Virus record (IMG/VR): IMGVR_UViG_3300032236_000307
Location: 1-51,453 of that record
Strand: one strand, 5' to 3'
DNA: 51,453 nucleotides
Source: a virus
Taxonomy: Duplodnaviria > Caudoviricetes
The translations under genes were made by a program, and so were the position numbers. Shown here piece by piece: positions 4,732 through 48,126 of this stretch. The notes under the pieces were generated by a model, which saw nothing but the letters and a program-made list of their open reading frames with translations, was not told where the DNA came from and ran no database searches. The first letter of the stretch is position 1, and the number at the start of each line of letters is the position of its first letter.

Positions 4732-4873
4732 GCAAAAAAGCGTGAATGTGCCCCAGCACAAGCGCCTTGCCCAAGGAGAGAAGCTGGACGGAACTAGCCT
4801 GAAACCGAAAGGTGGCAGTACTAATCCGATTAGTAAATCTCATGGCGGCTTGTCGCACGCGAAGAAGAAATGA
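4715..4873 (+). CDS. Small basic hypothetical protein
   Basis: AGGAGG RBS at 4704-4709, ATG at 4715, overlaps the portal stop and the next start (ATGA). Confidence 0.65.
   Translation: MASDNEQKSVNVPQHKRLAQGEKLDGTSLKPKGGSTNPISKSHGGLSHAKKK
4819..4835. promoter_or_regulatory. 17-bp palindrome TACTAATC-C-GATTAGTA (copy 1; candidate parS/operator)
   Basis: Perfect inverted repeat; identical arms recur at 15498, 39666 and 48105. Confidence 0.7.
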
Positions 4874-5049
4874 TCGAAGCTCTGATTCACAGAATCAAGA
4901 TATGCCAGAGTGAGTTGCAAGTATCCCTAGCGATAGGGATGCCGATAACTTGGGAAGCATATCAACGCATGGTTGGCGAATATCAAGGGCTCCAAAAGGC
5001 CATGGATATCATCGACAACATGTTGGAAGAGGAAAACAGTTCCGATTAA
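4870..5049 (+). CDS. Hypothetical protein (59 aa, not in the ORF track)
   Basis: ATG at 4870 coupled to the upstream stop; MIEALIHRIK...YQRMVGEYQGL...; fills the gap before groES. Confidence 0.7.
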   Translation: MIEALIHRIKICQSELQVSLAIGMPITWEAYQRMVGEYQGLQKAMDIIDNMLEEENSSD

Positions 5050-5103
5050 CCAAGCACTGCAAAGTGCGTCAATGCACCTGAAATATGGTGTGGAAGGAAA
5101 GTG

Positions 5104-5556
5104 ATGAGCGAGAAAGACCCAATCCCTACGATTGAGGGCAATGCAGGCGTAGCCGACCCAGTTGAACTGGCGTGGGCATTCCCTGAAGTAAACCCCGGAC
5201 AGCGTCCATTTGGGGGTCGAGTGATAGTGCAACTGCGGCGGATTAAAAAGAAGGCAGGACGCATCATCATCGTTGATGAAACCAAGGAAAACGAGAAGTG
5301 GAACAACATGATCGGCAAGGTCGTGGCTATTGGCCCACTCGCGTTCAAGAACCGAGACACCATGCAACCTTGGGCCGAAGGCTCATGGGCTGAGATTGGC
5401 GACTTTGTTCGCGTTCCTAAGTGGGGCGGAGACCGTTGGGAGCGAGCAGTTCCCGGTGAAGACGGCGAAGACCCAGTGTTATTCATGACGATCAACGACC
5501 ATGAACTGATTTCGGCAGTCACAGATGACCCGTTGTCGTTCAAAGCCTACGTTTAA
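5104..5556 (+). CDS. groES: Co-chaperonin GroES (Cpn10)-like protein
   Basis: PFGGRVIVQ, GRIIIVDETKE, GKVVAIGP, IGDFVRVPKWGG and INDHELI match the Cpn10 pattern. Confidence 0.85.
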   Translation: MSEKDPIPTIEGNAGVADPVELAWAFPEVNPGQRPFGGRVIVQLRRIKKKAGRIIIVDETKENEKWNNMIGKVVAIGPLAFKNRDTMQPWAEGSWAEIGDFVRVPKWGGDRWERAVPGEDGEDPVLFMTINDHELISAVTDDPLSFKAYV

Positions 5557-5565
5557 GGGGGAAAT

Positions 5566-6558
5566 ATGGCAACAGCAGAACAAAAAGAGCTTGCACTGGA
5601 AACCATTGAGTCGGATGACGGCTCTGCGGTGGTGGAAGTTGATCCCGCAATGCTCATTCCTGAGGAAAGTGATGAGCAAAACGGGTTTGAAAGAGCAAAA
5701 GAAGGCGGAAGTGTGGATAAATCCACCGATTCCGCTGACGAAGACCATCCAGACGATGATGAAGAGCTTCGTTCCGCCAAAAGGAACCGTCGCCGGGCTA
5801 AAAAAGACCTGATCCGCAAGACAAATCAGGAAAAAGATGCCCAGTTGATGGCCTTGAAGCGCGAAAACGAAGAGTTCAAGCGTCGTTTGAGCCTAGTTGA
5901 GCGCAGTGCCAAGACTGAAGGCTTGATGCGCATCGACAAAAACCTTGAGGATGCCAACTACCGGGTGGAATACGCCAAGTTGAAGCTGGCTGAGGCGACT
6001 CAAAACGCTGATGGTCAGGCAATGGTGGAGGCACAGACCCTCTGGAACGCCGCGCAACGCGAAGTTGACCAACTGACGCAGGTTCGCAAGCAGGCCGACC
6101 AAGAGTTGAGACAGCCTCAGCAACAGCAGGGTGCCGACCCCATGGTTCAGCGCCTCGCACAACGGTGGATGTCCCGCAATTCTTGGTACAACCCATCGGC
6201 AACAGACCCCGACAGCCGAGTCGCCAAAAAGATCGACGAACTGATGGGCGCACAGGGCTGGGATCCGACCGATCCCGACTACTGGGATGAGCTTGATAGC
6301 CGTTTGCAAAAAGAGTTGCCCCACCGCTACAATGACAGCAATGACGACGATTCCCGTAATGTCAGAAGACCAAGGAATGTTGTGGGTAGCTCAGGACGTG
6401 AAGCATCTGCCGCTTATGGTGGTTCTAACCGAACCCAATTTGTACTATCACCTGATAGGGTGAAAGCTATGAAGGAAGCTGGTGCTTGGGACAATCCTGA
6501 ACGCAAAGCAAAAATGATTAAGCAATTCATGGCTTATGACCGCGCCAACCGCAACTAA
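5566..6558 (+). CDS. Capsid scaffolding protein (putative)
   Basis: Acidic N-terminus, long coiled coil, WMSRNSWY motif, short helical C-terminus; lies between portal and MCP. Confidence 0.65.
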   Translation: MATAEQKELALETIESDDGSAVVEVDPAMLIPEESDEQNGFERAKEGGSVDKSTDSADEDHPDDDEELRSAKRNRRRAKKDLIRKTNQEKDAQLMALKRENEEFKRRLSLVERSAKTEGLMRIDKNLEDANYRVEYAKLKLAEATQNADGQAMVEAQTLWNAAQREVDQLTQVRKQADQELRQPQQQQGADPMVQRLAQRWMSRNSWYNPSATDPDSRVAKKIDELMGAQGWDPTDPDYWDELDSRLQKELPHRYNDSNDDDSRNVRRPRNVVGSSGREASAAYGGSNRTQFVLSPDRVKAMKEAGAWDNPERKAKMIKQFMAYDRANRN

Positions 6559-6575
6559 TCTAAGGGGAAAACATA

Positions 6576-7121: not shown

Positions 7122-7135
7122 CCAAGGAGTTAAAC

Positions 7136-7735: not shown

Positions 7736-7746
7736 GGAGCTAAAAA

Positions 7747-8661: not shown

Positions 8662-8666
8662 AAAGC

Positions 8667-15003: not shown

Positions 15004-17412
15004 ATGTCATCACAAGTCACGATCACCGAACTGCCACAAGCATTGCCCCTGACGGGCAGTGAGGTGGTGCCTGTCGTCCAAAACGGTGTCACCGTCAAGA
15101 CCACCACGGGCTCAATTGCTGGTGCAGGTGCGCTGAATTACCCATTCCTGACAGTTGGATCCACCGCCGGGTTAACGCAAGCACGCTACCTGACGACCGG
15201 AAACGGCATGTCGCTGACAGACAGCGGCGCAGGCAACACCTTGCGGATCAATATGACTGGGCCGGCATCAAGTCTGAACGCCGCAAGCAACGGACTCATC
15301 GTCAAAAACGGCCCCAGCACGGTCATAAACCGCCAGTTGACAGTTGGTTCAGGCATGACCATAGCCAATGCAGATGGGGTCGATGACAACCCGCTGATTG
15401 GCCTGAATACCAACCTGCAAAACGTAGCCAGCCTGTCCGGCACCGGACTGGTGACGGTCAAGGGATCAATCTTTTCCCAAACTGCAATCGTTGGTGTTAC
15501 TAATCAGATTAGTATTTCCAACGGAGATGCAGGTAGTGGATCGCCCACAATTGGCCTTGCTGACAACCCAATACTGCCCGGCGCATCCGGGGTTACGTTG
15601 CCTCAGGGCACCACAGTACAGCGTGCCGGAGCAAACGGCACCATACGCTACAACAGCCAAACACAGCAGTTTGAGGGTTATGCCAACAACACATGGAACC
15701 CGTTTTCACTGTCGGGCGGTGTAACGTCCTTCAGCGCAGGCACAACGGGCTTTACGCCGTCCACAGACACCACTGGTGCCGTTACCCTTGATGGCATCCT
15801 GAACGTGTCCAATGGCGGCACAGGAACGTCTACGCTGACCGGCTACGTCAAAGGCAACGGCTCAATCCCCATGACGGCCTCGGCGACCATACCGACGACC
15901 GATTTGTCGGGCACTGTGACCAATGCCCAGCTTACCAACAGCAGTGTGACCATCAACGGCACCTCAGTGAGCCTTGGCGGCTCCATTACGGTGACCGCAA
16001 CAGCCACCAATGCGTTGACCATTGGCACCGGGTTGAGCGGCGCAAGCTACAACGGCTCATCCCCAGTCACCATTGCGATTGATTCGACTGTGGCGACATT
16101 GACTGGCTCGCAGACATTGACCAACAAGTCAATCAGCGGCTCGACCAACACGCTAACCAATATTGGCAACTCCAGCCTGACCAACTCGTCGTTGACCATC
16201 GGCACGACATCGGTTGCGCTGGGGGCCACTTCGTTGACTTTGGCTGGCCTGACCTCAGTCACGCTGACTCAAAATCCGACCTCGGCCCTGCAAGCCGCCA
16301 CCAAGCAATACGTTGATGCGGCGGTGTCCAACGTCAACTATCACGCCGCTTGTAACTACGCCACAACGGTTGATTTGGGGTCTGTGACCTACAACAACGG
16401 CACATCTGGCGTTGGGGCTACGTTGACCAATGCGGGAACGCAAGCGGCCTTGGTGATCGATGGTCACACCTTCACGGCGACCGATGTCACCAACAGCGTG
16501 CGGATCCTGATCAAGAACGAAAGTTCGGGCCAGTACAACGGCGTTTATGTGCTGACCAATCAAGGATCGGTGTCAACAAACTGGTCGATGGTCAGGGCAA
16601 CCGATTACGACCAAACAGGCACTGGACAGAACGAAATCGCTCCCGGCGACACGATGTATGTCATCAGCGGCACGGTCAATAACGGAACTCAGTGGGTTCA
16701 GACAACCGACTTCCCCATCACCATCGGCACAACACCGCTGAGTTTTTCGCAGATTGCTGGCCCGGGCGCGTACACCGCAGGCACTGGCCTGACGCTGACT
16801 GGAACCCAGTTCAGCATTACCAACACCACGGTGTCTGCTGGCTCCTATGGATCAGCAACGCAGGTGGGAACCTTCACGGTCAACGCTCAAGGTCAACTGA
16901 CCGCCGCCGGAAACACCACCGTGACCCCGGCTGTGGGGTCTATCACCGGCTTAGGAACCAACGTAGCAACCGCCTTAGCAATTGCCGTTGGCACCTCCGG
17001 GTCTATCGTGACCAATGGCGGCGTTCTGGGCACCCCAAGCAGTGGCACGGTGACCAATCTGACAGGCACAGCCTCCATCAACATCAATGGCACTGTGGGG
17101 GCTACAACAGCCAATACAGGGGCGTTCACCACCATCTCAGCGACCGGTGTCATCACATCCACCGTTGCAACAGGAACAGCCCCGTTTACCGTGTCATCGA
17201 CGACGCAGGTGGCTAACCTGAATGCGGCGACCGCAGGCACCGCAACCAACGCCACAAACACCGGCATCACTGCCGTCACAACAGGCGCAACAAACTACTT
17301 GACCTTCGTTACCGCGACTAGCGGCAACTTGCCTCAATTGGTAAACTCATCAATAACTGTAAACGCAGTAAATGGCACCATCACAGGTGGCGTTACGGGC
17401 GGCACGTTCTAA
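15004..17412 (+). CDS. Long tail fibre protein
   Basis: 802 aa T/G/S-rich; ITELP N-terminus, GTIRYN..FEGY, AATKQYVD, RILIKNE..NGVY motifs; ends GGTF. Confidence 0.8.
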   Translation: MSSQVTITELPQALPLTGSEVVPVVQNGVTVKTTTGSIAGAGALNYPFLTVGSTAGLTQARYLTTGNGMSLTDSGAGNTLRINMTGPASSLNAASNGLIVKNGPSTVINRQLTVGSGMTIANADGVDDNPLIGLNTNLQNVASLSGTGLVTVKGSIFSQTAIVGVTNQISISNGDAGSGSPTIGLADNPILPGASGVTLPQGTTVQRAGANGTIRYNSQTQQFEGYANNTWNPFSLSGGVTSFSAGTTGFTPSTDTTGAVTLDGILNVSNGGTGTSTLTGYVKGNGSIPMTASATIPTTDLSGTVTNAQLTNSSVTINGTSVSLGGSITVTATATNALTIGTGLSGASYNGSSPVTIAIDSTVATLTGSQTLTNKSISGSTNTLTNIGNSSLTNSSLTIGTTSVALGATSLTLAGLTSVTLTQNPTSALQAATKQYVDAAVSNVNYHAACNYATTVDLGSVTYNNGTSGVGATLTNAGTQAALVIDGHTFTATDVTNSVRILIKNESSGQYNGVYVLTNQGSVSTNWSMVRATDYDQTGTGQNEIAPGDTMYVISGTVNNGTQWVQTTDFPITIGTTPLSFSQIAGPGAYTAGTGLTLTGTQFSITNTTVSAGSYGSATQVGTFTVNAQGQLTAAGNTTVTPAVGSITGLGTNVATALAIAVGTSGSIVTNGGVLGTPSSGTVTNLTGTASININGTVGATTANTGAFTTISATGVITSTVATGTAPFTVSSTTQVANLNAATAGTATNATNTGITAVTTGATNYLTFVTATSGNLPQLVNSSITVNAVNGTITGGVTGGTF
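15498..15514. promoter_or_regulatory. 17-bp palindrome TACTAATC-A-GATTAGTA (copy 2)
   Basis: Perfect inverted repeat inside the tail-fibre CDS. Confidence 0.7.
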
Positions 17413-35053: not shown

Positions 35054-35055
35054 AT

Positions 35056-35083
35056 AACCCCCTCCGTATGTGGAGGGGGATTT
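35056..35083. terminator. Bidirectional terminator between the convergent late and early operons
   Basis: CCCCCTCC-N6-GGAGGGGG hairpin with A/T flanks between convergent stops. Confidence 0.7.
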
Positions 35084-35085
35084 GC

Positions 35086-35307
35086 TTACGCTTGTGATCT
35101 AACCTCAAGAATCTTGTCAGCCACCAAAGTGTTGTATGCGCGTGCAACATCTACGCATGCCTCACGTTCAGCTTTGACAATCTCTGGTGTTGCCTTCTTC
35201 ACAAAGGCATCAGCCAACATGACAAGGTCTTCTTCGAGGAAGTTGTAGTTTTCCTCCAGTTGAATATTCATGAAGGCTTCGATCACCTGTTCCTTGGTCA
35301 AGCTCAT
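35086..35307 (-). CDS. Hypothetical protein
   Basis: GGAG RBS, coupled to the upstream gene; EREACV motif. Confidence 0.65.
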   Translation of the reverse strand: MSLTKEQVIEAFMNIQLEENYNFLEEDLVMLADAFVKKATPEIVKAEREACVDVARAYNTLVADKILEVRSQA

Positions 35308-35516
35308 TTCTTCTCCTCAAGGTCAAGCTCCAAGTTGATGGGGCGAGCATACTCAACCTTCACCCCCTTACCCAAAAGCTCCACCAGATCGGTTTGTGAG
35401 GCTACAGCGGCGTTGTATTGGCTGTTAGCAACATAGGCGATGGCGGTCTGCCGGGTAGGGGCGCTGACAAGGTGGATACCTGTGGGGCCACCGACTACAT
35501 AGATACGTTCTGACAT
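35304..35516 (-). CDS. Hypothetical protein
   Basis: AAGGA RBS; operon context. Confidence 0.65.
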   Translation of the reverse strand: MSERIYVVGGPTGIHLVSAPTRQTAIAYVANSQYNAAVASQTDLVELLGKGVKVEYARPINLELDLEEKK

Positions 35517-35525
35517 GATGTTTCC

Positions 35526-36449
35526 TTATTTGACGTTGATGAATGGAACTGCACCGCCGCTGGTGGTGGGCAATTTGCCGTCCCAGCGTTCGATTGCTTT
35601 GAGTTGGACATAGGATGCCCCGCCTTGGCTGTTGATGGCCTGCGTTTCGATCTGGATTGCTTTGGCACGGCCTTCAGCCTTGGCAATCTCTTGTTTTGCT
35701 TCTACTTCGATGCGTTGCAAGTCTTGCTCGGCCTTCAGCTTGGACTGTGTTGCCACAACCTTGGACTCGATGGCACGTTGGTACTCTTCGCTGAACCCAA
35801 AGTTCACCAGACTGATGTCGCCTACCTCCACGCCGTACTTGACCAGCTTGCCTGCAACCTCTTCTTTGACTTGACCAGACACCACATCGCGCTTGGTAAT
35901 CAACTCTTCGCTGGTGTAGTGGGCCGTGACGGCTTTCAATGACTCACTCAGGGCAGGCAGGATGACTCGGTCTTGCAAGTCAAAGCCAAACTCTTTGTAG
36001 ATGTGAGCCGCCTTGGAGCCATCAATGCGGTAGTTCATCACGATGTCAGTGTGAATCTGTTGCAAGTCTTTGGTTCCCGCACTGGCCTTCTCAAGCTTGG
36101 TGGTGACCAAACGAACCTCAACCTCTTTGATGCGAGAGATCGGATTGACCATGTGCATACCCTCAGCCAATGTCTGTTGGTTGACTTCGCCCAGTGTCAC
36201 CTGCACACCAATGTGACCCGCAGGAATTACCGTAAACGATTCAAACGCAAGCGTTGACAGAATCAAACCCAGCGCAACCGCAGTAGGCAAAGATTTTTCA
36301 AATTCAGGCTTCGGCTCTTCGAATGGTCGTTTGTAGCTTTCGTTGTATTCCTTTTTGCGCTCCCATCCATCAAGCTCATTGCGATACCACGCATAGAAAC
36401 CACCAAACGTAACCAATGCCAAAAATAGTGAAAGAAAAATTAAACTCAT
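35526..36449 (-). CDS. SPFH/band-7 (prohibitin-like) membrane protein
   Basis: IPAGHIGVQVTLG, TKDLQQI, LKAVTAHYTSEELITKR, FSEEYQRAIESK, AIERWDGKLP; ATG 36449 with GGAG RBS. Confidence 0.88.
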   Translation of the reverse strand: MSLIFLSLFLALVTFGGFYAWYRNELDGWERKKEYNESYKRPFEEPKPEFEKSLPTAVALGLILSTLAFESFTVIPAGHIGVQVTLGEVNQQTLAEGMHMVNPISRIKEVEVRLVTTKLEKASAGTKDLQQIHTDIVMNYRIDGSKAAHIYKEFGFDLQDRVILPALSESLKAVTAHYTSEELITKRDVVSGQVKEEVAGKLVKYGVEVGDISLVNFGFSEEYQRAIESKVVATQSKLKAEQDLQRIEVEAKQEIAKAEGRAKAIQIETQAINSQGGASYVQLKAIERWDGKLPTTSGGAVPFINVK

Positions 36450-36450
36450 T

Positions 36451-37239
36451 TCAAACTCCAAAGTTGTTTTTCAATTTCCAAAAGCGCAAGAGACATTGAA
36501 ACATCTCCCAGCCCTTGACCAGTTCTTCCTCAGACCATTCCACAACCTTCACGAGGCCGGGGTGGGTGCGAGAAACAAACACGTTTGCACAGCGTGCATG
36601 AGGCACTCCAAGGCCGTGGCGATAGGCCGCGAGTTGAAGCAGATGTTCGTCATAGGCTTCCACCTTGTCGTCGGGGCCAAAGTCCTTCGACTTAGCATCC
36701 AACACAATGCCCACGGGCGCGTGCTCGTCAGCCGCGCAGTACAAGTCCACCTTGCCACCAAAGCCCAGCGCACTGGCAAACGACCGCTCGACCAACCAAG
36801 GCTGGAATGGGTGTGTTTTGAAGTGGTTGAAGATTGACTCTTCAAAGGCTTTGGCGATGTCCTTGTGCTCGACATCCTTCTTGCCGCCGAACCATGCCTC
36901 AATGGACTCGTGGATGCGCGTGCCACGCTCTGCGGCGGACTTGGCGGTCTCCTTGGAGTCGAACACGATCCGGGCGATGAAGTCCTTCTCAGACTCGCCG
37001 GGGTCGCGCGGCAGGGTCAGGGCGGCGAGAAGCATTTGCTCCTGCTTCCAAGCCTCCAGACCGGGCTTTGCGGCGATTTTGAGGACGGTGGTGACCGAAG
37101 GCACCAGATCCATCTTGCGTGCGTCCCTGAGGGTTGTAGGACGGTCGGAACCGTCCTTGGCCTTCACGGTGTACTGCGGCGCTCCGTCTTGTTGATACCA
37201 ATGAACCGACTCAGCGGCTCGTGCAATGATTGTGGTCAT
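36451..37239 (-). CDS. PD-(D/E)XK exonuclease (Cas4/RecB-like)
   Basis: PSVTTVL, AAERGTRIH, GGKVDL, LDAKS, QLAAY. Confidence 0.85.
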   Translation of the reverse strand: MTTIIARAAESVHWYQQDGAPQYTVKAKDGSDRPTTLRDARKMDLVPSVTTVLKIAAKPGLEAWKQEQMLLAALTLPRDPGESEKDFIARIVFDSKETAKSAAERGTRIHESIEAWFGGKKDVEHKDIAKAFEESIFNHFKTHPFQPWLVERSFASALGFGGKVDLYCAADEHAPVGIVLDAKSKDFGPDDKVEAYDEHLLQLAAYRHGLGVPHARCANVFVSRTHPGLVKVVEWSEEELVKGWEMFQCLLRFWKLKNNFGV

Positions 37240-37721
37240 TTTTTCTTTCCTCGTGGTTTGCGGTTAGCCAAGATTTTTTTACCTTCTGGTGTTTGAGTCC
37301 AATGCGGCTTTTTGTGAACCTCAACAATAGGAGGGCTTGTTTTCCAGAGTCCAGAACGTCTCATTGCTTCAACTTGAGTTGGATTCAATGTGAATGTTTT
37401 GGGCTTTTTTTCTTCAGCAGGCTCTTTGTATTCCATCCAATCATCAGCCAGCATGTCTGATTGGGACGCTAACCAACCGGGCAAGTAGGCTTGACGACCT
37501 TCCGAGTTGACTGTCCACATATCAATGTGCGGCAAAATTTCCAAATGATCCAAACCACGGCGCTTCAAGAACTCGGCGTTGATAGGGCCGTTGGGTTTTA
37601 CTTTGTCAGCTTCAACAAGGTAGCCGCCAGCACGAATTAAAAACATGCCCTTGCCATTCCACCCTTGACGAGTGACTGGATAACCTGCATTCAATAAAGT
37701 AATTGCTTCTCCAAATTTCAT
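37236..37721 (-). CDS. DUF2829 / Tad2-like protein with C-terminal extension
   Basis: MKFGEAI..VTRQGWNGKGMFL...PGWLASQSDMLADDW signature. Confidence 0.8.
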   Translation of the reverse strand: MKFGEAITLLNAGYPVTRQGWNGKGMFLIRAGGYLVEADKVKPNGPINAEFLKRRGLDHLEILPHIDMWTVNSEGRQAYLPGWLASQSDMLADDWMEYKEPAEEKKPKTFTLNPTQVEAMRRSGLWKTSPPIVEVHKKPHWTQTPEGKKILANRKPRGKKK

Positions 37722-37730
37722 TTTTACTCC

Positions 37731-37880
37731 TCAAGAAAACCAAAGAAAAAAGCCGTGGAATATTCCTATGGGGAAGAATATTGCGCCAGCAAGGAGGAAC
37801 CCCCAAGCGGCATGACCAAAGCAATAGAAGATGTGTGTGAGCCATGCAAAGAAGCAGGCCCATCCAATGACGTATCCCAT
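37731..37880 (-). CDS. Small hydrophobic membrane protein (49 aa, not in the ORF track)
   Basis: AGGAG RBS; MGYVIGWACFFAWLTHIFYCFGHAAWGFLLAGAIFFPIGIFHGFFLWFS. Confidence 0.65.
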   Translation of the reverse strand: MGYVIGWACFFAWLTHIFYCFGHAAWGFLLAGAIFFPIGIFHGFFLWFS

Positions 37881-37889
37881 GGTTGCTCC

Positions 37890-38177
37890 TTAGTATGGGA
37901 ATTTGGGCTTAGGTATGCACTGAACATCAATGACGATGTCTGACATCATTCCTGAGACCATGCGTTTAGAAAACACAGGTACAGCCCTCATACCATTGCT
38001 TTCGCAATCAATGGTGGCTTGTATAACCTCATTGCGGCTCATTTGCTGAACGCGAGAGTCCAGCACCAATTGAACTGGTGGAGGCCCTGCGTGCAAATAA
38101 GACGATGGCTGAGGCGGCGGAGGCGGTGCTGAGGCGCAACCCGCCAGCACCAGCGGGATCAAGAGTAGTGTTCTCAT
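37890..38177 (-). CDS. Lipoprotein
   Basis: LAGC lipobox, poly-Pro linker, MSRNEVI..C..C. Confidence 0.75.
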   Translation of the reverse strand: MRTLLLIPLVLAGCASAPPPPPQPSSYLHAGPPPVQLVLDSRVQQMSRNEVIQATIDCESNGMRAVPVFSKRMVSGMMSDIVIDVQCIPKPKFPY

Positions 38178-38179
38178 GA

Positions 38180-38830
38180 TCAGAAGGGGATATCGTCATC
38201 CATGTCGTCAAAGGCAGGCTTGGCGGCTGGTGCAAACACAGGCGCTGGTGCTTTGCCTTGCAATCGTTGCCATTCAGGCGACTGCATGATCTTTCCCTTG
38301 AGCTTTTCGTGGAAGGTTTCAAACATTGCCATGTCGGGCTTGTCGAGTTGAAAGATTTCATCCGGGTTGACCGCCGCAGGCAGGCCACTCTTTTTCATCA
38401 CCGACGGAACAGGAGTCACGCCTTTGACGTTGATGTAAGTCTTACCGTCGTTGCCTGTGCTCTCAATCAGGTTCAACATGCACCATGCACCCAACACAGT
38501 CTTCAGATCGAAGCGACGCATCTCTTCTTCGGTGAATGGCTTGCCTCGCCATGACTGAAGATCAATACGCAGGTTGGCCTTCGATGACCATGACAGCGTG
38601 TAGTTTTGGAAAGCGCCAAACGGACGACCATCCTTCATGCGAAGCGGATTGCCTTCGTCATCAGAACCGTGGATTTCCCAGTAGATGGCGATCTGGTGCA
38701 ACAGCTTGGCAACGCCTTTGAATTCCTTCTTCTGGGTGCCAAGGTCAATGATTCGGTAGCACCGCGCGAGGTGCATACCGGGTGGGCAACGCTCGAAGTC
38801 TCCACCCTTGTCTTCAACGATAAAACTCAT
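38180..38830 (-). CDS. Single-stranded DNA-binding / recombination protein (SSB-like)
   Basis: AGGAG RBS before ATG 38830; ARCYRIIDLGTQ; acidic tail ending DDDIPF. Confidence 0.7.
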   Translation of the reverse strand: MSFIVEDKGGDFERCPPGMHLARCYRIIDLGTQKKEFKGVAKLLHQIAIYWEIHGSDDEGNPLRMKDGRPFGAFQNYTLSWSSKANLRIDLQSWRGKPFTEEEMRRFDLKTVLGAWCMLNLIESTGNDGKTYINVKGVTPVPSVMKKSGLPAAVNPDEIFQLDKPDMAMFETFHEKLKGKIMQSPEWQRLQGKAPAPVFAPAAKPAFDDMDDDIPF

Positions 38831-38889
38831 GATTTCTCCTGTTAAAAAGTCCCGTAGGACACTCACACGATCAACTTGATCGCAGGAAG

Positions 38890-38922
38890 ACTATAACACG
38901 GAATTAGATAATGTGTTAGACT
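38890..38922. promoter_or_regulatory. Overlapping divergent promoters (19-bp TCTAA-N4-GTGTTA(T/G)A(G/C)T motif)
   Basis: Minus-strand TCTAATTCCGTGTTATAGT (38890-38908) and plus-strand GTGTTAGACT (38913-38922) between divergent operons. Confidence 0.65.
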
Positions 38923-38943: not shown

Positions 38944-39144
38944 ATGAACCTGAAGCAATATTTCAAAGACGAGCCCTACGGGGCGAAGAAGGAAATGGCT
39001 GATCACCTTGGCATCACGCCGACATGGCTTGGTTTGCTAATCAGAAAAGCCAGACGGCCTTCACCTGAATTGGCGAAGAAGATTGAAAAAGCAACCGAAG
39101 GTCTTGTGAGCGCCAGAGAGTTGCGACCAGATTTGTTTGATTGA
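38944..39144 (+). CDS. Cro/YdaS-like HTH transcriptional regulator
   Basis: AGGAGG RBS; MADHLGITPTWL..RRPSPELAKKIEKATEGLVS..ELRPD. Confidence 0.85.
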   Translation: MNLKQYFKDEPYGAKKEMADHLGITPTWLGLLIRKARRPSPELAKKIEKATEGLVSARELRPDLFD

Positions 39145-39174: not shown

Positions 39175-39960
39175 ATGAAAAAAGTAAAGCTAGATGCCAT
39201 CAGACTCGATGGCGGGACTCAGTGCCGAGTAGTGATTGACCAACCCACGGTCTATGCCTACTTGGAGGCCATGAAAGAAGGCGATGAATTCCCACCATTG
39301 GAGACGGTGTTTGATGGCTCAACGCATTGGCTGACAGATGGGTTCCACCGTTGGCATGCGTACAAACTGTTGGGCATCAAAGAGCTTGAGGTGAAGTACA
39401 AGCCCGGCACCTTGCAGGACGCGCAAATCGAAGCATTGAAGGCCAATTCCAAACATGGCAAGACGCTGACCAATGAAGACAAGCGCAACAAGGTCGAGAT
39501 GGCTTTGAGCATTGATGGCTTTGACATGAGGTCGGACTACGAGATTGCCAAGCTGTGCGGGGTGTCACAACCCTTTGTGGCCTCAATCCGCAACCCGGAG
39601 AAGAAGGAAAAGCAAGCCGCCCAGCGAGCTAAGAGCAGTGCCAAGAAGTCTGAGGAGTTAAGTGTTACTAATCAGATTAGTAGTGAAAATACAACAGCTA
39701 ATCCTGATGCCGGGGCTGTTCCTGATGAGGCGGAGATGCAGGCCGCAGAGCGAGCCATGCAAGCCGACATGGATGCCATGTACAAGCTGTTGGAGTCCGA
39801 CGACGCATTGCAAACTGCGCACGAGGAGATCAAGCGGTTGAACTACTTGGTGGCTCAACAAGAAACCCGTATTCATGGGCTCATGAATGAACGTAATACA
39901 GCAGTGACCATGCTGAAGAAACTCCAAAAAGAAAACGATAAATTAAAGGCCAAAAAATGA
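39175..39960 (+). CDS. parB: ParB-like protein (ParB/Srx N-domain, HTH, C-terminal coiled coil)
   Basis: FPPL..LTDGFHRWHA, ANSKHG, SDYEIAKLCGVSQPFVASIR HTH, heptad C-terminus. Confidence 0.75.
   Translation: MKKVKLDAIRLDGGTQCRVVIDQPTVYAYLEAMKEGDEFPPLETVFDGSTHWLTDGFHRWHAYKLLGIKELEVKYKPGTLQDAQIEALKANSKHGKTLTNEDKRNKVEMALSIDGFDMRSDYEIAKLCGVSQPFVASIRNPEKKEKQAAQRAKSSAKKSEELSVTNQISSENTTANPDAGAVPDEAEMQAAERAMQADMDAMYKLLESDDALQTAHEEIKRLNYLVAQQETRIHGLMNERNTAVTMLKKLQKENDKLKAKK
39666..39682. promoter_or_regulatory. 17-bp palindrome TACTAATC-A-GATTAGTA (copy 3, inside the parB-like gene)
   Basis: Perfect inverted repeat. Confidence 0.7.
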
Positions 39961-41486
39961 CTGATACCCTAGCGCCAAGTGGGCGTAATGATGGAGCAAG
40001 ATTCCCCGATCCAAGACCCTTCCAAGTGACTGCACACAACGAGTTGCGCCAAGGGTTCAGGGACGGGCATAAAAACCAATTGATCATGGCCCCTACGGGG
40101 GCCGGGAAGACCTACCTTGGCCTGCGGATCTGCAACGAAGCAATCCAAAAGGGCAAGCGTGCGGTCTTCCTATGTGATCGCACCACCCTGATCAACCAAA
40201 CCTCTGCTGTGGCTGATAAGTACGGCATGAGGAATCACGGCATCATTCAAGCCAACCACTGGCGGCGCAGGCCAGAGGAGTTGTTGCAGATTGCCAGCGT
40301 GCAGACCATCGCCAAACGCGAGTTCTGGCCTCAGATGGACGTGCTGGTGGTCGATGAGGCCCACACCACCTACAAGGCGTGGACAGAGTTTGCTCAGGCC
40401 ACCGGTGCCACTGTGATTGGCCTGTCAGCCACACCGTTCACCACCGGGCTGGGCAAGATATTCAGCAACCTCGTAAACGCCACCACGATGCACGATTTGA
40501 CCGTGGACGGGGTACTGGTGCCCATGCGCATTTTTTCCTGCCAGAAGCCCGATATGACCGGCGCTGAGACCAAAGGCGGTGAGTGGACAGATAAGGCGGC
40601 GGAGGAGCGCGAACTCAAGATTGTGGGTGACGTAGTCAACGACTGGATCCGGTTCGGCGACAACCGCAAAACGATTGTGTTCGGAGCCACCATCAAACAC
40701 TGTGAAGAATTGTGTCGGCAATTTATTACACAGGGCCACATGGCGGCTGTGTTCACGTCGGAGACCACCGCAAAGGAGCGGGAAGACCTACTGAACGAGT
40801 ACCGCAAGCCTGACAGCCACCTGAAGATTTTGATCAGCGTGGAGGCGCTTGCAAAGGGTTTTGACGTGCCTGATGTAGGTTGTATCTGTGACGCGCGACC
40901 ATTGCGCAAATCGCTGTCCACCGCGATCCAGATGTGGGGCCGGGGCCTGCGGTCGTCACCCGACACCGGCAAGAAGGATTGTCACCTGCTGGATTTCAGC
41001 GGCAACATCATTCGGTTCTTTGAGGACTTCAACGACATCTACTTCAACGGTTTGGCGAAGCTGGATGACGGCGACAAGCTGGACAAGAAAATCCGCACCG
41101 CTGAGGAGTTCGAGGCCAAGGGTTGCCCCAAGTGTGGCTACAAGCCGTTCCACAAGCGGTGCATGGCCTGCGGGTACGAGAAGGTCAGCCGCATGATTGA
41201 CGATGCGGTGCCGGGCCACATGAAGGAGATATTCATTGGCGAAGGCAAGAACAAGAAAAAGCTGGCGGACAACGCCGAGCACCTGTGGCACCAAGTCGTG
41301 ACCTATGCACGCATGCACAGCAAGCCTGAGACTCAGCAGGGCCGTGCCTATCACCTGTTCAAGAAGATCACCGGGCAGGATCCCATGTGGCGCTTCACCA
41401 CTGCGCCCAACGTGGAGATCGGTCGCAACGTGATCAACAAGATCACACAGATGAACATGGCGTGGAAGAAGGGGATGGGCAAATGA
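39957..41486 (+). CDS. Superfamily 2 DEAH helicase with C-terminal Zn ribbon
   Basis: APTGAGKT, DEAH, GLSATP, KGFDVP, QMWGRGLR, CPKC..CMAC. Confidence 0.92.
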   Translation: MTDTLAPSGRNDGARFPDPRPFQVTAHNELRQGFRDGHKNQLIMAPTGAGKTYLGLRICNEAIQKGKRAVFLCDRTTLINQTSAVADKYGMRNHGIIQANHWRRRPEELLQIASVQTIAKREFWPQMDVLVVDEAHTTYKAWTEFAQATGATVIGLSATPFTTGLGKIFSNLVNATTMHDLTVDGVLVPMRIFSCQKPDMTGAETKGGEWTDKAAEERELKIVGDVVNDWIRFGDNRKTIVFGATIKHCEELCRQFITQGHMAAVFTSETTAKEREDLLNEYRKPDSHLKILISVEALAKGFDVPDVGCICDARPLRKSLSTAIQMWGRGLRSSPDTGKKDCHLLDFSGNIIRFFEDFNDIYFNGLAKLDDGDKLDKKIRTAEEFEAKGCPKCGYKPFHKRCMACGYEKVSRMIDDAVPGHMKEIFIGEGKNKKKLADNAEHLWHQVVTYARMHSKPETQQGRAYHLFKKITGQDPMWRFTTAPNVEIGRNVINKITQMNMAWKKGMGK

Positions 41487-42349
41487 GTTTCATTGACTTT
41501 GCACGAGCACACGGCGTGGAGATCGACCACGCCAAACTGTATGCATCAGATCGCATCAAGCGCACTGGTACCGTTGCCAAACCCAAGTCGGACAATGGTG
41601 CCTACTTCTGGGACGGTCAGCGTGGCTGGATCATGGATTGGTCGGGAGAGGCAAAAGTGATTTGGTACAACGACCCATCGGCACGACCATGGAGCGACGA
41701 GGAGAAACGTGCATGGGCGGCAAAGCGCCAAGCCCAGCAGACCGATCAACAGCACAGGTACGAGCAGGTGGCCTTGCAGGCCGATATCACTCTGCGGTCA
41801 GCCAAGACCATGACCCACAGCTATTTGCAGATCAAGGGCTTCAAGGATCTTGAAGGGCTGGTGCTGGACGATAAACTGCTGATCCCGATGCGCAACGTGG
41901 TGACCAACAGGTTGCAGGGCTACCAGCAGATCTACTGGGACGCTGAGAGCCGCAAGCATGAGAAGAAGATGCTGACAGGTATGCGTGCCAAGAATGCCGT
42001 CTTCTACCTTGGTCAGAGGGGCTTGGAGGAGGCTTGGCTGGTCGAAGGGTATGCCACTGGCCTGAGCGTCCTCCATGCCCTCAGAAGCTGTGGATTGAAG
42101 GCATCGGTGGTGGTGTGTTTTAGCGCAGGCAACATGGTGGCTGTTGCGGATCAGATACAGGGCAAGAAGTTTGTTTTTGCTGACAACGATGCCAGCCAGA
42201 CAGGAGAAAAATCGGCAATAAGTACGGGCTTGCCTTGGACGATGGCTGAAACTGTGGGCTGGGATGCCAATGATTTGCACATAAAGCAAGGCTTGTTTGC
42301 AGTGGTGAAAAAAATTATGGAGTGCCGAAATTCAGTGATATATTCCTGA
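41483..42349 (+). CDS. DNA primase (TOPRIM domain)
   Basis: LLIPMRN, EGYATG, FSAGN, ADND, DAND; ATG 41483 overlaps the helicase stop. Confidence 0.85.
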   Translation: MSFIDFARAHGVEIDHAKLYASDRIKRTGTVAKPKSDNGAYFWDGQRGWIMDWSGEAKVIWYNDPSARPWSDEEKRAWAAKRQAQQTDQQHRYEQVALQADITLRSAKTMTHSYLQIKGFKDLEGLVLDDKLLIPMRNVVTNRLQGYQQIYWDAESRKHEKKMLTGMRAKNAVFYLGQRGLEEAWLVEGYATGLSVLHALRSCGLKASVVVCFSAGNMVAVADQIQGKKFVFADNDASQTGEKSAISTGLPWTMAETVGWDANDLHIKQGLFAVVKKIMECRNSVIYS

Positions 42350-43488: not shown

Positions 43489-43876
43489 TGGTGGCGCGGA
43501 AGGAAAGCGTACACGGTATGCAACCGTGGATTTGATGATGGTGATTGCCCGGACTGACGGGTATGACTTGTAGGCTGGATCGTTCTTTGGAATACGCAAG
43601 GTGGGGGCTTTGTTCCCCCTGAAAGTGCCAGCAAACCCAGAGTTCAGTACTGGGCACCATCATCAAGTTCATGGGCTAGGGGGCAGTTCCCGAATAATCC
43701 GTGCGGCTGGTCGAATCATCAAGCCGAGGGGTAGACGGTATCCAATCCGTCACATGATGATCCTGCTTGACAGGGGTGAAGCACCTTCCCTCTCTACTCC
43801 GGTTGGGGTAGGGGGGTCTTTGGGTGAAAGGAAAGGAAGAGGGGGGAGATGGGGGCAGGCCCCGCACCTGCCAGAC

Positions 43877-43895
43877 TCAAACCCCGTGTTAGACT
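43877..43895 (+). promoter_or_regulatory. Phage promoter motif variant
   Basis: TCAAACCCCGTGTTAGACT, 23 nt before ATG 43919. Confidence 0.55.
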
Positions 43896-43918
43896 TTAAC
43901 CAAACAACTGGAGAACCC

Positions 43919-44554
43919 ATGGACAAGCTGGAAGAGTTGCACTACTTCACCACCCCGATTTATTCGATAGTCAAGCCTGAGTTCTTGGAGCCCATCCGGG
44001 CGCTGTCTGCGAAGTATTTGGAGCACTCCAAAGAGGTCATGAAGGCTGACCGACCAATGACGGTGATGACGAACAACTTTTCGTTGGAGCCAGAGGCCGC
44101 AGACTTTGCGCAATACGTTTCACAGACTGCATGGAACATCCTGAACGCTCAAGGGTATGACATGGACAAGCTGGTGACTTACTTCACCGAGATGTGGACG
44201 CAGGAGCACAACTTCCATTCCAGCATGGATACCCATGTGCATGGAGGCGGAACACAAGTCAGCGCGTTTTACTTTTTGGAAGTCCCAGAGAACGCATGCA
44301 AGTTGATTATTCACGATCCACGGCCTGCCAAGGTCATCATTGACTTGCCAGAGAAGGACGACACCAAAGTCAGCCCAGCATCTCGCATGATCGTGTTTAC
44401 GCCGCAGGAGGGCACGTTGTTTTTTGCACCTGCATGGTTACCTCACCAGTTCACTCGCAACATGAATCCTGAGAAGCCTGTGCGCTTTGTACACATGAAC
44501 TTGTCAGTGACATTGGCACCGCATCAGCACGAGCCAGATGTGGAGGTGATATGA
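43919..44554 (+). CDS. 2OG-Fe(II) oxygenase (TIGR02466-like)
   Basis: GGAG RBS before ATG 43919; MWTQ, HVHGG, SAFYFL, HDPRP, PAWLPH. Confidence 0.85.
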   Translation: MDKLEELHYFTTPIYSIVKPEFLEPIRALSAKYLEHSKEVMKADRPMTVMTNNFSLEPEAADFAQYVSQTAWNILNAQGYDMDKLVTYFTEMWTQEHNFHSSMDTHVHGGGTQVSAFYFLEVPENACKLIIHDPRPAKVIIDLPEKDDTKVSPASRMIVFTPQEGTLFFAPAWLPHQFTRNMNPEKPVRFVHMNLSVTLAPHQHEPDVEVI

Positions 44555-44781
44555 AATTCAGAAAGAAGCCTGTGGTCATTGAGGCCACCCAGTGGTTCAA
44601 GATGGGCGACCATCCGAAAGTTGTTATTGAGTTTGAGGGAAAACCAATGCCGCCTTATGTCTGGACTCTTGAGGGTTTGATGCAAGTTAACCCCGGCGAC
44701 TGGATCATTACTGGCGTGAAGGGTGAACACTACCCATGCAAGCCCGACATCTTTGAGATGACCTATGAGGCTGTAGAGTGA
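44551..44781 (+). CDS. Small phage protein, KFRKKPVVIEA family (copy 1)
   Basis: MKFRKKPVVIEA...TLEG...GDWIITGVKGEHYPCKPDIF. Confidence 0.8.
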   Translation: MKFRKKPVVIEATQWFKMGDHPKVVIEFEGKPMPPYVWTLEGLMQVNPGDWIITGVKGEHYPCKPDIFEMTYEAVE

Positions 44782-45011
44782 AGTTCAGAATCAGATTCAA
44801 CAAGACCGCCGGGCAACCCGGCAGGGGCACCATCGATCACAAGTGGAGAGTGTTCGACGAGACTGGCAAAGAGTTCCTTTGCAAGAATGTTTGGTTGCTG
44901 ACCAAAGCATGGACAGCAGAAGATCCCAACGGGCACGATTGGAATTTTGTTGTTGAAGGTGTGATGCACATCAATCGAGCAGACTCCACAATCACTATTT
45001 CAGAAGTCTAA
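44778..45011 (+). CDS. Hypothetical protein
   Basis: GTG start coupled to the upstream stop; IRFNK..GRGT..H.WRVF. Confidence 0.65.
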   Translation: MKFRIRFNKTAGQPGRGTIDHKWRVFDETGKEFLCKNVWLLTKAWTAEDPNGHDWNFVVEGVMHINRADSTITISEV

Positions 45012-45025
45012 TTTTGTGTTAGACT
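45007..45025 (+). promoter_or_regulatory. Phage promoter motif
   Basis: TCTAATTTTGTGTTAGACT. Confidence 0.6.
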
Positions 45026-45059
45026 CCTCCTACCACAACGTGTGGGTATAGGAGGTCAA

Positions 45060-46459: not shown

Positions 46460-46647
46460 GCGAAGAAGACTACATTGAAATGAGAATTCTCCCTGAACTA
46501 TCTGACTGGCAGTGCTACATGTTTGGCAATAGACCGGGCTATTTGGGCATTGTGTACCGCCCAAGAAAAGGCAGGGTTCCAAATTTGTTTGTGCGCTGGA
46601 TGATGCGCATTTGTTTTGATTGTTTGTGGGTAAAGGATAAGAAATGA
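46456..46647 (+). CDS. Hypothetical protein
   Basis: ATGA coupling at both ends. Confidence 0.6.
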   Translation: MSEEDYIEMRILPELSDWQCYMFGNRPGYLGIVYRPRKGRVPNLFVRWMMRICFDCLWVKDKK

Positions 46648-46916
46648 AATTCAGAAAGAAACCCGTAGTGATCGAAGCTACTCAGTGGTTCAAGATGGGT
46701 GACCATCATGCCGTCATGCCGGGTTGGTCTTTGATGGAAAGCGGCAAGAAGGAATATTTTTTCTTTGTCAATACTTTGGAAGGTCAAATGAAAGTTAATT
46801 ACGGCGACTGGATCATCACTGGCGTGAAGGGTGAACACTACCCATGCAAGCCTGACATTTTTGAGATGACCTACGAACCAGTTGAGATGACGTTTGAGCA
46901 CAGGAGCTACCCATGA
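46644..46916 (+). CDS. Small phage protein, KFRKKPVVIEA family (copy 2)
   Basis: Near-identical termini to 44551..44781. Confidence 0.8.
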   Translation: MKFRKKPVVIEATQWFKMGDHHAVMPGWSLMESGKKEYFFFVNTLEGQMKVNYGDWIITGVKGEHYPCKPDIFEMTYEPVEMTFEHRSYP

Positions 46917-47170
46917 CTGAGAAAAAAGAAATGAGCCAACTTGCTCGGCAACTGCTGGGTGGTTCCGGCGCGGTGACATTTTTCACCCAAGCTGAGTTCG
47001 ACGAGGCGCTGGCGCTGGCAAAGGCAGAGATCATGACCGTGGCTATTGAGACCACAAAGCGAGCCATCATGATCGAGCGAGAGGAGTGCGCCAAGCTCGC
47101 CGACGAGTGCGTGGACATTGAAAAGCTAGGCGACGCAATCCGTAACCGCATACCAACACAGAGGCAATGA
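46913..47170 (+). CDS. Hypothetical protein
   Basis: AGGAG RBS; EREECAK motif. Confidence 0.65.
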   Translation: MTEKKEMSQLARQLLGGSGAVTFFTQAEFDEALALAKAEIMTVAIETTKRAIMIEREECAKLADECVDIEKLGDAIRNRIPTQRQ

Positions 47171-47391
47171 TGGGATTCAGAGACACATTTGGCAAAGTCA
47201 TGCGGGAAGTCACCCGCACCAAAACCATCCGGGAAATCATCGCGGCGGAACTGCGCGAGGCCCACAAGAAAAAGTTGGAAGCGGAGTCCGGGGTCGAATA
47301 CGCCCGGTCAATCGTCCAGTACAACGAGCAACGCATCCAGCGCCTGCAAAAGCGCCTACTGGAGCACACCGAAGAAGGAGACTACACATGA
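47167..47391 (+). CDS. Hypothetical coiled-coil protein
   Basis: Translationally coupled ORF. Confidence 0.6.
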   Translation: MMGFRDTFGKVMREVTRTKTIREIIAAELREAHKKKLEAESGVEYARSIVQYNEQRIQRLQKRLLEHTEEGDYT

Positions 47392-47729
47392 ACCAAAAGG
47401 ACATCAACGATGCAGTGGACTACCTGTACACCCATGGTGCCAAGTATGCTGAGGCCAAAGCACAGCGCGTCTACCTCGAAGAGTTCCGCAAAAGCCAGAA
47501 GGCCATGCTGATGATCACCGCCAAGGTCAGTGGCAAGGCCAAATCCGAGGCGGCGGCAGAAACAGAAGCATATGCAGACCCAGCCTATGTCGAGATCCTC
47601 AAGGGCCTACAGGTGGCTGTAGAGCAGGAAGAAGCCTTGCGGTGGGGGTTGGTGTCGGCGCAGGCCAGAATCGACGTGTGGCGCTCGCAGGAGGCCAGCA
47701 ACAGGGCATTCGACAAGGCGGTGACATGA
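47388..47729 (+). CDS. Hypothetical helical protein
   Basis: AGGAG RBS; LEEFRKS..EAYA..IDVWRSQEA. Confidence 0.7.
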   Translation: MNQKDINDAVDYLYTHGAKYAEAKAQRVYLEEFRKSQKAMLMITAKVSGKAKSEAAAETEAYADPAYVEILKGLQVAVEQEEALRWGLVSAQARIDVWRSQEASNRAFDKAVT

Positions 47730-47854
47730 CAGACACACAAATGGCTTTATTGCTTGCCAACATCTGGCTTGCTCGGCATGCAGGCGAAGGATATTCGGGG
47801 TGCATGGCCCTGTTGTTTTTGTTTTTAGGGCTTTACAAAGGGTGGTTTGCATGA
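47726..47854 (+). CDS. Small hydrophobic protein
   Basis: ATGA coupling at both ends. Confidence 0.5.
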   Translation: MTDTQMALLLANIWLARHAGEGYSGCMALLFLFLGLYKGWFA

Positions 47855-48126
47855 ACGGCTCCTACAACAAGGATGAGCGAGCATGGGTGCATCTGGTGAA
47901 GGAGCAACCCTGCTCTGTATGCGGCACGCCCGGCCCATCGGACGCACATCACATCAAACAGGGCAAACACTACACCTGCGTGGCCCTGTGCAAGTCCTGC
48001 CACCAAGGCGCAAAGATGGGCTGGCACGGCGAAAAGCGAGCATGGGCAATTGCCAAGATGGACGAGCTTGATGCCCTAAATGAAACTATAAGAAACATAA
48101 GTACTACTAATCGGATTAGTAGTTAA
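47851..48126 (+). CDS. Zn-binding HNH/Ref/DUF968-like small nuclease-fold protein
   Basis: PCSVCG..DAHH..VALCKSCHQG..GWH. Confidence 0.7.
   Translation: MNGSYNKDERAWVHLVKEQPCSVCGTPGPSDAHHIKQGKHYTCVALCKSCHQGAKMGWHGEKRAWAIAKMDELDALNETIRNISTTNRISS
48105..48121. promoter_or_regulatory. 17-bp palindrome TACTAATC-G-GATTAGTA (copy 4)
   Basis: Perfect inverted repeat extending to ACTACTAATC-G-GATTAGTAGT; about 60 nt upstream of a promoter motif. Confidence 0.7.

Follow-up and report, generated by a model that had tools for sequence, protein, structure and literature searches.

Dispersed palindromes in a phage genome as probable binding sites of its own ParA-less ParB-like protein

The stretch of DNA considered here is the entire IMG/VR record IMGVR_UViG_3300032236_000307 (Caudoviricetes; 51,453 nucleotides, 93% complete), referred to below as the window. 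It carries a gene for a protein that combines a ParB/Srx-fold N-terminal domain with a helix-turn-helix (HTH) and a C-terminal coiled coil, situated between a small Cro/YdaS-like HTH gene and genes for a RadD-like helicase and a Toprim primase-like protein. This ParB-like gene contains one of four exact copies of the 17-bp palindrome TACTAATC-N-GATTAGTA, which has 8-bp arms and a variable centre; the other three lie in a small open reading frame (ORF), in a tail-fibre-like gene and in the last codons of a further ORF (Table 1). In silico, the sites are non-random, specific to each genome and conserved in position, and they covary with the HTH of the protein. We consider it probable, from the sequence comparisons set out below, that the orphan ParB/Srx-fold protein of this phage binds or loads at the four palindromes, protein and sites forming a ParB/parS-like pair that lacks ParA.

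Genome-specific palindromes at conserved positions

The four copies, with central bases C, A, A and G, had been picked out in a preliminary description of the window, and an exact-match scan recovered the same four at the same positions. No match to the palindrome arose in dinucleotide-preserving shuffles of the window (n=100), a scan allowing up to three mismatches added no site to the four exact ones, and the 8-mer half-site did not occur in the window outside them. This was also the only palindrome family with arms of at least 6 bp that occurred more than twice in the window. The number of copies is a lower bound, since the window is without the terminase-large region, in which relatives have one or two additional sites. 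The window starts inside a 761-residue ORF (1-2287), and between this end of the window and the other (51177-51453) relatives have terL and an 880-residue gene (34384-38728 in relative G005, corresponding to L137:14384-18725); the class of sites found at the terL junction is therefore not visible in the window.

All four sites read ACT AAT CNG ATT AGT on the + strand, and hence T-N-P/Q/R-I-S. Codon usage computed over 74 selected ORFs of the window upheld the earlier remark on codon bias, in that each of these codons is a minority choice (ACT 19% of Thr, AAT 29% of Asn, ATT 39% of Ile and AGT 9% of Ser). The tail-gene position further separates nucleotide symmetry from peptide: relative G003 has a palindrome of its own type at the same codons, giving the peptide SSQTT, and relative G001 retains the peptide TNQI through ACC AAT CAG ATC, with no symmetry. 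At this site the DNA drives the peptide and not the reverse, and the selection at the DNA level proposed in the preliminary description is established. That description had counted a peptide kept without symmetry as evidence against the idea; the G001 tail gene presents exactly this case, which fits the idea, since the ParB-like helix of G001 pairs with a different palindrome, TACTAATT, found in five copies elsewhere in G001. A chance repeat, or one driven by the peptide, is ruled out by the shuffles, the mismatch scan and the tail-gene codon comparison.

We compared the window genome (G000) with five fuller relatives (G001-G005), four of which are complete with terminal repeats. The relatives share core genes with the window, their capsid proteins being 93-97% identical to that of the window, and each of the six genomes carries three to five dispersed copies of one odd palindrome of its own. 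The half-site is TACTAATC in G000 and G005 (four copies each), TACTAATT in G001 and GTGTAATC in G002 (five copies each), and GTAGTC in G003 (five copies) and G004 (three copies). Half-site changes between genomes are symmetric on both arms, and the central base is free (T 31, C 27, A 26 and G 20 among 104 sites).

Positions are kept while the sequences at them differ: this holds for the ParB-like gene, the stop of the orthologue of ORF 47800-48126, codon ~166 of the tail gene and a gap beside terL, where tandem pairs with a separation of 24-32 bp are frequent. Tandem sites, and multiple sites within ParB-like genes, are spaced by 24-52 bp with no constant helical phase. Among the window copies, the context of copy 1 was found again in one related contig (L070); the orthologous spot of copy 2 holds an identical site in G005 and a variant of its own in G003; and the position of copy 4, which is 77 bp (centre to centre) upstream of a conserved promoter-like element, is kept in G001, G003, G004 and G005, with each genome's own variant. 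The exact palindrome of the window is present in 97 IMG/VR stretches, 83 of which belong to this phage family by tblastx and 14 of which are unrelated; in the family members it stands in the tail-gene orthologue (22), in or beside the ParB-like gene (12), at the end of the 47800 orthologue (5) and at the terL end (approximately 25). The preliminary description had placed the sites inside coding sequences, which is correct for all four window copies but does not extend to a general rule: of the 26 sites in the six genomes, 16 fall at gene junctions, even though ORFs take up ~94% of G000.

The close relatives are all metagenomic. Only three GenBank phage records contain a relative, the best being an uncultured Caudoviricetes at 57% identity, and the closest full-length matches in the bacterial collection are contigs of metagenome-assembled genomes (MAGs) from Burkholderiales, which hint at the host.

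Covariation of the ParB-like helix with the half-site

In the AlphaFold2 model of the ParB-like protein (predicted local distance difference test score, pLDDT, 79), a ParB/Srx-fold N-terminal domain is followed by the HTH (helices 121-128 and 132-139), a linker (165-180) and long C-terminal helices; the linker is disordered (pLDDT <50), and it is precisely within this segment that the palindrome is encoded. The protein matched PHROG 1033, annotated as 'ParB-like partition protein', at 1.3e-16, and a profile search of the PDB returned Myxococcus xanthus ParB (7o0n) at 2e-6. Foldseek searches with the N-terminal domain and HTH gave ParB-CDP, Noc, KorB and Spo0J as top matches (E ~1e-6 to 6e-5), among them 6sdk, 7bnk, 7nfu and 8qa9 with probability 1.00 and E 1e-6. 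On these predicted-structure and profile matches, the N-terminal domain is assigned to the ParB/Srx (ParB-CTPase) fold superfamily. Two nucleotide-motif boxes could be followed through 120 homologous proteins: box I (Q-x-R) reads TQCR in 119 of them and box II reads (D)GFHR[YW] in all 120, aligning to GERRWRA of M. xanthus ParB; Q16, R18, G56 and R59 are invariant. The family is large, with 21,349 cluster representatives at E<=0.001 and 14,478 at E<=1e-10.

A palindrome at the same place within the ParB-like gene was found in 24 of the 24 relatives first collected, in 65 of 89 viral loci and in 37 of 79 bacterial homologues, in-gene sites being counted when the part of the gene searched held a palindrome with arms of 6 bp. 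The half-site in these genes follows the residues at the start of the recognition helix (positions 132 and 133 of the window protein). Helix QP goes with TACTAAT(C/T/G), QS or ES with TACTAGT, KS or RS with (TA)GTAGTC, AP or VP with GTGTAATC, HP with GTGGAAT, HS or HT with GTGGAGT and DK with GCGATT, and the helix (VD)HKTV goes with TGGGGAA in viral locus L123 and in four bacterial loci, the titles of which name Simplicispira, Paludibaculum, an alphaproteobacterium and a Planctomycetaceae bacterium. For the first of the two residues, Q occurs with TACT, K or R with G at position 3, A or V with GTGT and H with GTGG. For the second residue, Pro133 is paired with A at half-site position 6 in 30/30 loci, Thr133 with G in 11/11 and Ser133 with G in 19/21, both exceptions having two site types.

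The pairing of palindrome and HTH that the preliminary description had proposed is supported by these counts and by phylogeny: with the tree computed from residues 1-115 alone, the independent pairs that fell on supported branches agreed in 8 of 8 cases (p=0.008). The code also holds at the peptide level in 119 further proteins from a large protein collection (QP with TNxIS, QS with TSxTS, K/R-P with SNxIT, KS with SSxTT, AP with CNxIT and HS with WSxTP), with two exceptions. By mutual information, which serves here as a ranking only and is uncorrected for kinship, Y122 and Q132 were the top columns outside the linker. Overall, the DNA-reading part of the protein is variable and its C-terminal part conserved.

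The match extends well beyond the gene itself. We identified 29 distant extra copies of a locus's own type, in 25 of the 65 loci, matching the local helix, and only seven foreign-type matches, with ~29 of the 31 half-sites tested per locus being foreign; copies 8-24 kb from the gene still match the local helix. These distant copies argue against linkage or cassette exchange as the source of the covariation.

Two further observations concern this family. One ParB-like gene (L107:10495-10523) carries two overlapping palindromes, TAGTAGTC and TACTAATC, and two contigs each have one site mismatching their own helix (L120:7494-7510 and L144:17468); such mixed-type sites may have been left behind by recombination or by a switch in specificity. 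Fusions of this ParB/Srx domain to DNA methyltransferases occur in bacterial prophage regions (L253:9989-11323, L218:9956-11188 and L282:11520-12692), and the L253 fusion also has an HTH and an in-gene palindrome at the equivalent place.

From the combined evidence we infer that the protein binds the palindromes; any dimerisation, nucleoside triphosphate (NTP) use, spreading and biological role are likewise inferred. A dimer, probably held together by the C-terminal coiled coil, would put one HTH on each 8-bp arm and leave the centre base free, with the arm read by Y122 and residues 132-133 at the start of the recognition helix. One site would always be built into the linker codons of the binder's own gene, and we propose that specificity and target are in this way inherited together and that the protein can load in cis. 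Further copies would be retained at fixed places in the genome, all changing together with the helix.

Several findings weigh against this interpretation. The window protein had no match to Pfam ParB_N (PF02195) at E<=0.01 and none in an NCBIfam scan, and PF02195 matched one of 17 relatives at E=0.055; precomputed PF02195 matches were present in 4 of 120 homologues among the matches listed. The E and first R of the GERR motif are replaced by F and H in box II (GFHR), and box III reads K-A-N, with Glu replaced by Ala and Asn kept. The GFHR box II, a box III without Glu and the missing ParB_N match leave CTP-clamp behaviour unproven, and CTP binding or clamp closure might fail given such divergent boxes. 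By the 6-bp-arm criterion the palindrome is absent from 24 of 89 viral and 42 of 79 bacterial homologues. At the peptide level, HT occurred once with TNxIS and RT once with SNxIT; at the DNA level, L120 and L144 have their foreign-type sites, and QP stands with other half-sites (GTGATAAC or CTTATAAC) in the distant homologues L188, L217 and L281. No reader residue was found for the innermost position 8 (C/T/G). Finally, the HTH codons lie ~100 nt from the in-gene site, and linkage or cassette exchange could inflate the covariation counts.

Gene neighbourhood and possible roles

Profiles for ParA (PF13614 and PF01656) gave no match in the window or in four complete relatives (0/5 genomes), with controls positive in 14/14 genomes, confirming the absence of ParA that had been noted from the window. 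The ParA-binding motif [LFI]G[KR]G[LFI] was found in 0/120 proteins, the fold starting at residue 2. Five genomes (four complete) yielded neither a tyrosine nor a serine integrase, and no CI-type repressor was recognised among the 74 window ORFs. With no ParA, no ParA-binding motif, no integrase and no recognised CI-type repressor, we judged partition of a plasmid-prophage, and classical partition generally, to be an unlikely role; the host element is likely a virulent phage.

Table 1. Palindromes and neighbouring features in the window
Feature	Position	Strand	Remarks
Palindrome copy 1, centre C	4819..4835		Small ORF 4649-4873, following the portal gene
Palindrome copy 2, centre A	15498..15514		Codons 166-170 of the 802-residue tail-fibre-like gene 15004-17412
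Palindrome copy 3, centre A	39666..39682		T165-S169 codons in the disordered linker of the ParB-like protein; in-gene site found family-wide
Palindrome copy 4, centre G	48105..48121		Last codons of ORF 47800-48126, ending 2 codons before the stop
ParB/Srx-fold + HTH + coiled-coil protein, 261 residues	39175..39960	+	Proposed binder
HTH-coding segment, residues 121-139	39535..39591	+	Y122, Q132 and P133 covary with the half-site
NGO0469-family 'phage replication initiation protein'	38180..38866	-	NF046043 2.1e-59, 199.9 bits (cut-off 75)
Cro/YdaS-like small HTH gene	38944..39144	+	Directly upstream of the ParB-like gene; Pfam YdaS_toxin 1.3e-9
RadD-like SF2 helicase with zinc ribbon	39957..41486	+	Start overlaps the ParB-like stop (ATGA)
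Toprim primase-like gene	41387..42349	+	Start codon uncertain
Promoter-like element	48173..48200	+	Carries second palindrome TCTAAC-N5-GTTATA (48182-48198)
Second palindrome copies	38892-38908, 43877-43893, 45007-45023, 48182-48198, 50049-50065		<=2 mismatches to TCTAAC-N5-GTTAGA
Two 2OG-Fe(II) oxygenases	19865-20977, 43601-44554		PF13640, PF13759
SPFH/Band 7 protein	35526-36461	-	PF01145 6.7e-31
Tad2-like Thoeris anti-defence domain	37239-37721	-	PF11195 2.4e-19; no homologue in the five compared relatives
Two paralogous small PHROG 419 proteins	44551-44781, 46644-46916	+	Early region

The distribution of sites in the relatives suggests KorB-like regulation, through their placement at gene junctions and ~80 bp upstream of a conserved promoter-like element. 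Tandem pairs directly adjoin the ribosome-binding site of the gene that follows terL or, in G002, the start codon of terL itself. Of the 29 extra sites, 14 are located 53-122 bp upstream of a promoter-like element carrying TCTAAC-N5-GTTAGA, a position that is kept through specificity changes. The small HTH gene found ahead of the ParB-like gene in 65 of 88 loci is reminiscent of the KorA-KorB pair. We tentatively favour, at somewhat less than an even chance, a role as a DNA-bound regulator or roadblock of the KorB, VirB or BisD type acting at gene and operon junctions, including that of the protein's own replication operon. Two points count against such a role: the 14 promoter-proximal sites represent one orthologous position and not independent events, and all four window sites are intragenic, a poor fit to a promoter-operator function.

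Linkage of the ParB-like gene to a helicase and a primase makes a role in replication or recombination a serious rival, one that we rate only a little lower, as possible though rather unlikely. The same binder would then be an origin-type or loader protein of the replication/recombination module, marking phage DNA for the co-translated RadD-like helicase and primase. Recruitment of these two enzymes would fall to the conserved C-terminal part of the binder, and the dispersed copies would offer additional points for starting or loading. A loader is suggested by the RadD-like helicase gene that comes next after the ParB-like gene in 79 of 80 viral loci (25 of 62 bacterial loci) and that overlaps it in the window; a primase follows within 8 kb in 76 of the 80 viral loci. 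Bacterial prophage loci have the order exonuclease, Sak4, SSB, RusA, ParB-like, helicase, primase, so that the homologues sit between recombination genes and the helicase, and their site is single and in-gene, with no extra copies in the flanks of 37 loci. The variable DNA-reading part and conserved C-terminal part also suit a loader, as does the lack of any DNA polymerase among the 74 window ORFs scanned. Precedents for such a layout are lambda O at ori-lambda, an initiator with its site in its own gene and acting in cis, and SPP1 G38P, with oriL in its own gene and a distant oriR.

Other features fit a loader poorly. There is no AT-rich tract beside the in-gene site in 59 loci (AT 0.53-0.57 near the site vs 0.50 overall), and a lone palindrome usually stands there in place of an iteron array. 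The helicase is closest to RadD (3e-29 to 6jde), a member of superfamily 2 (SF2) and of no known replicative type. The ParB-like protein matched no initiator family, and a separate NGO0469-family 'replication initiation protein' is encoded next door, diverging from the operon of the Cro-like and ParB-like genes (present in 61 of 88 viral and 1 of 79 bacterial loci). Tandem sites set against late-gene ribosome-binding sites would also be odd for origins. A complex prediction for the RadD-like helicase with the ParB-like protein scored 0.00 (mark 0.32), which speaks neither for nor against. The remaining chances for the role of the protein are shared by condensation, nicking or something else.

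Nicking has been considered in its own right, as the ParB/Srx domain could be an enzyme, a 'ParB-like nuclease', whose activity at the palindromes (nicking or cutting) would give rise to localized nicks, recombination hot spots or packaging starts. The invariant D12, D47, D55, H58, R59, H94 and D102 might make up a catalytic centre or a metal site, the motif of sulfiredoxin is similar to the H-R of box II, sulfiredoxins are among the PDB matches, and some sites adjoin terL. The protein nevertheless matched no nuclease family, its best fold matches are the DNA-clamp ParBs, and cuts inside its own gene and a tail gene would require repair, all of which makes a nuclease improbable.

We regard as slightly more improbable still that another protein (the Cro-like HTH, the terminase small subunit or a host factor) reads the palindrome, the correlation with the ParB-like protein then arising from in-gene linkage. 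Odd palindromes of 17 bp are also typical of Cro/CI-type operators, a Cro-like gene lies directly upstream of the ParB-like gene in 65 of 88 viral loci, and tandem sites stand beside terL. However, the Cro-like recognition helix is unchanged across phages with TACTAATC, TACTAATG, TACTAATT, GTGTAATC and TACTAGTT palindromes, and copies far from the ParB-like gene still match the helix of the local ParB-like protein. The Cro-like HTH was accordingly rejected as the main binder, its helix being nearly invariant across five palindrome types.

The invariant Cro-like protein is better suited to a second, invariant palindrome, TCTAAC-N5-GTTAGA, for which it is the candidate binder, the palindrome being its candidate operator. 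This second palindrome overlaps promoter-like -35/-10 elements in the early region and stays the same across phages with differing ParB-type palindromes. With up to two mismatches it occurs five times in the window, vs 0.77 expected, and G002, G003 and G004 have three exact copies each.

It is very improbable that the palindrome works as a hairpin in RNA, serving in termination, processing or stability, or that it is the target of a restriction-modification or base-modifying enzyme: folding is better than in shuffles for two of the four contexts (z -3.1 and -2.0) and a G002 copy after the capsid gene has longer arms, but the stem is weak and A/U-rich, the other two contexts give z -0.3 and +0.3, the minimum free energy structure of the ParB-like gene avoids the hairpin, the innermost pair changes symmetrically though it would be loop, and an RNA role gives no reason for one sequence per genome or for the tracking of a protein helix. 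As to base modification, the phage encodes two 2-oxoglutarate (2OG)-Fe(II) oxygenases, and ParB-activated phage T-dioxygenases have been described (PMC13229309). The published activator ParBs are without a DNA-binding domain (PMC13229309). By Pfam neither oxygenase is of the Tet/JBP type, and the gene at 43601 has no homologue in G005, which retains the protein and its sites. As a separate observation, G005 has, in a region outside the window, a queuine tRNA-ribosyltransferase-like gene (31897-32520, or L137:11897-12520; PHROG 887, 8.9e-42), which might point to 7-deazaguanine DNA modification.

Returning to the palindromes as sites of the ParB-like protein, a more speculative proposal, which we think unlikely as it stands, is that the family consists of self-addressing modules, in which a loading site encoded in the linker and a two-to-three-residue helix code would give a private address that directs effectors to the element's own DNA. 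The effectors would be the RadD-like helicase and primase in this phage and the fused DNA methyltransferases in the prophage homologues, and dispersed copies would give an NTP-gated complex additional places to enter. Such an address would diversify fast between phages whose capsids are otherwise 93-97% identical, as expected from conflict with co-infecting relatives or host defences.

Orphan ParB-fold proteins are common on phages and other mobile elements and, in the literature searched, almost none has a known DNA target. Our search, which covered sources other than subscription journals and closed supplements, turned up no account of the palindrome, and none of in-gene sites or a recognition code for ParB-like proteins of phages. 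In the ParB-like family described here the target can be read directly from the gene, and the residue-to-base code is backed by several independent switches. Orthogonal protein/site pairs would show whether ParB folds of the GFHR type load, close and slide, and with which nucleotide, and would address the job of a ParA-less ParB in a likely virulent phage, be it regulation, replication/recombination loading or the marking of self DNA. The annotation of thousands of 'ParB-like' or hypothetical genes would improve, and the orthogonal DNA-binding pairs could be used as tools.

Comparison with known systems

Plasmid RK2 has the gene order korA-incC-korB and 12 OB sites for KorB. Like KorB, the phage protein has a ParB-fold N-terminal domain with an HTH and a C-terminal part that would dimerise, its short palindromic sites are scattered over a mobile genome with some far from promoters, a small HTH repressor-like gene stands just upstream, and KorB itself is among the top fold matches (8qa9). 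Unlike RK2, the phage has no ParA/IncC and is likely a virulent phage, not a plasmid; its protein carries the GFHR box II and a box III without Glu, always has one site in its own gene, and differs in specificity between close relatives. In RK2, KorA locks the sliding KorB clamp at promoters (PMC11790492).

The chromosomal ParB/Spo0J-parS and Noc-NBS systems provide the best fold and profile matches (6sdk, 7bnk and 7nfu) and a HTH dimer on a palindrome of ~16 bp, an arrangement proposed here for the phage protein; Noc is likewise an orphan with dispersed sites. In Bacillus subtilis a parS site lies inside the spo0J gene, and ParB and Noc specificity is set by few HTH residues. The phage family shares the cognate palindrome within the binder's own gene, covarying with the HTH, but it differs in having no ParA-binding motif and no Pfam ParB_N match, in an odd palindrome (8-N-8) of a sequence unrelated to parS, and in its linkage to a helicase and a primase.

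Among phages, N15 offers a genome with four separated inverted-repeat sites for a ParB-family protein, SopB (PMC7205306). N15 is, however, a plasmid prophage with SopA, whereas here there is no ParA, no integrase and no recognised CI-type repressor. With lambda O and SPP1 G38P the phage protein has in common a site in the linker-coding middle of its own gene, a variable DNA-reading half, a conserved C-terminal half and helicase and primase genes next in order; it has no sequence or fold relation to either, and in place of iterons and an AT-rich tract there is a single palindrome, with a RadD-like helicase. The stoperators of mycobacteriophage cluster A are asymmetric, oriented sites, ~20-30 in number, bound by the immunity repressor of a temperate phage. 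They too are dispersed short sites, within genes or between them, for one phage protein with specificity diverging between relatives, but the sites described here are three to five symmetric, perfect palindromes with a ParB-fold binder, in phages where no integrase was found.

A survey of orphan ParB-CTPase-fold proteins describes binders of CTP, ATP or GTP and notes that orphans have often lost box III (PMC12704722). The phage protein resembles these orphans, and also VirB and BisD, in lacking a ParA motif, in residing on a mobile element and in its divergent box III. That survey started from PF02195, which the phage protein does not match, and its accessible part names no cognate DNA sites, in-gene sites or recognition code (PMC12704722). 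Set beside all of these, the phage protein and its palindromes would constitute a ParB/parS-type system that is orphan and phage-borne, characterised by an obligatory in-gene site, a few dispersed copies conserved in position and a fast-diversifying, readable code.

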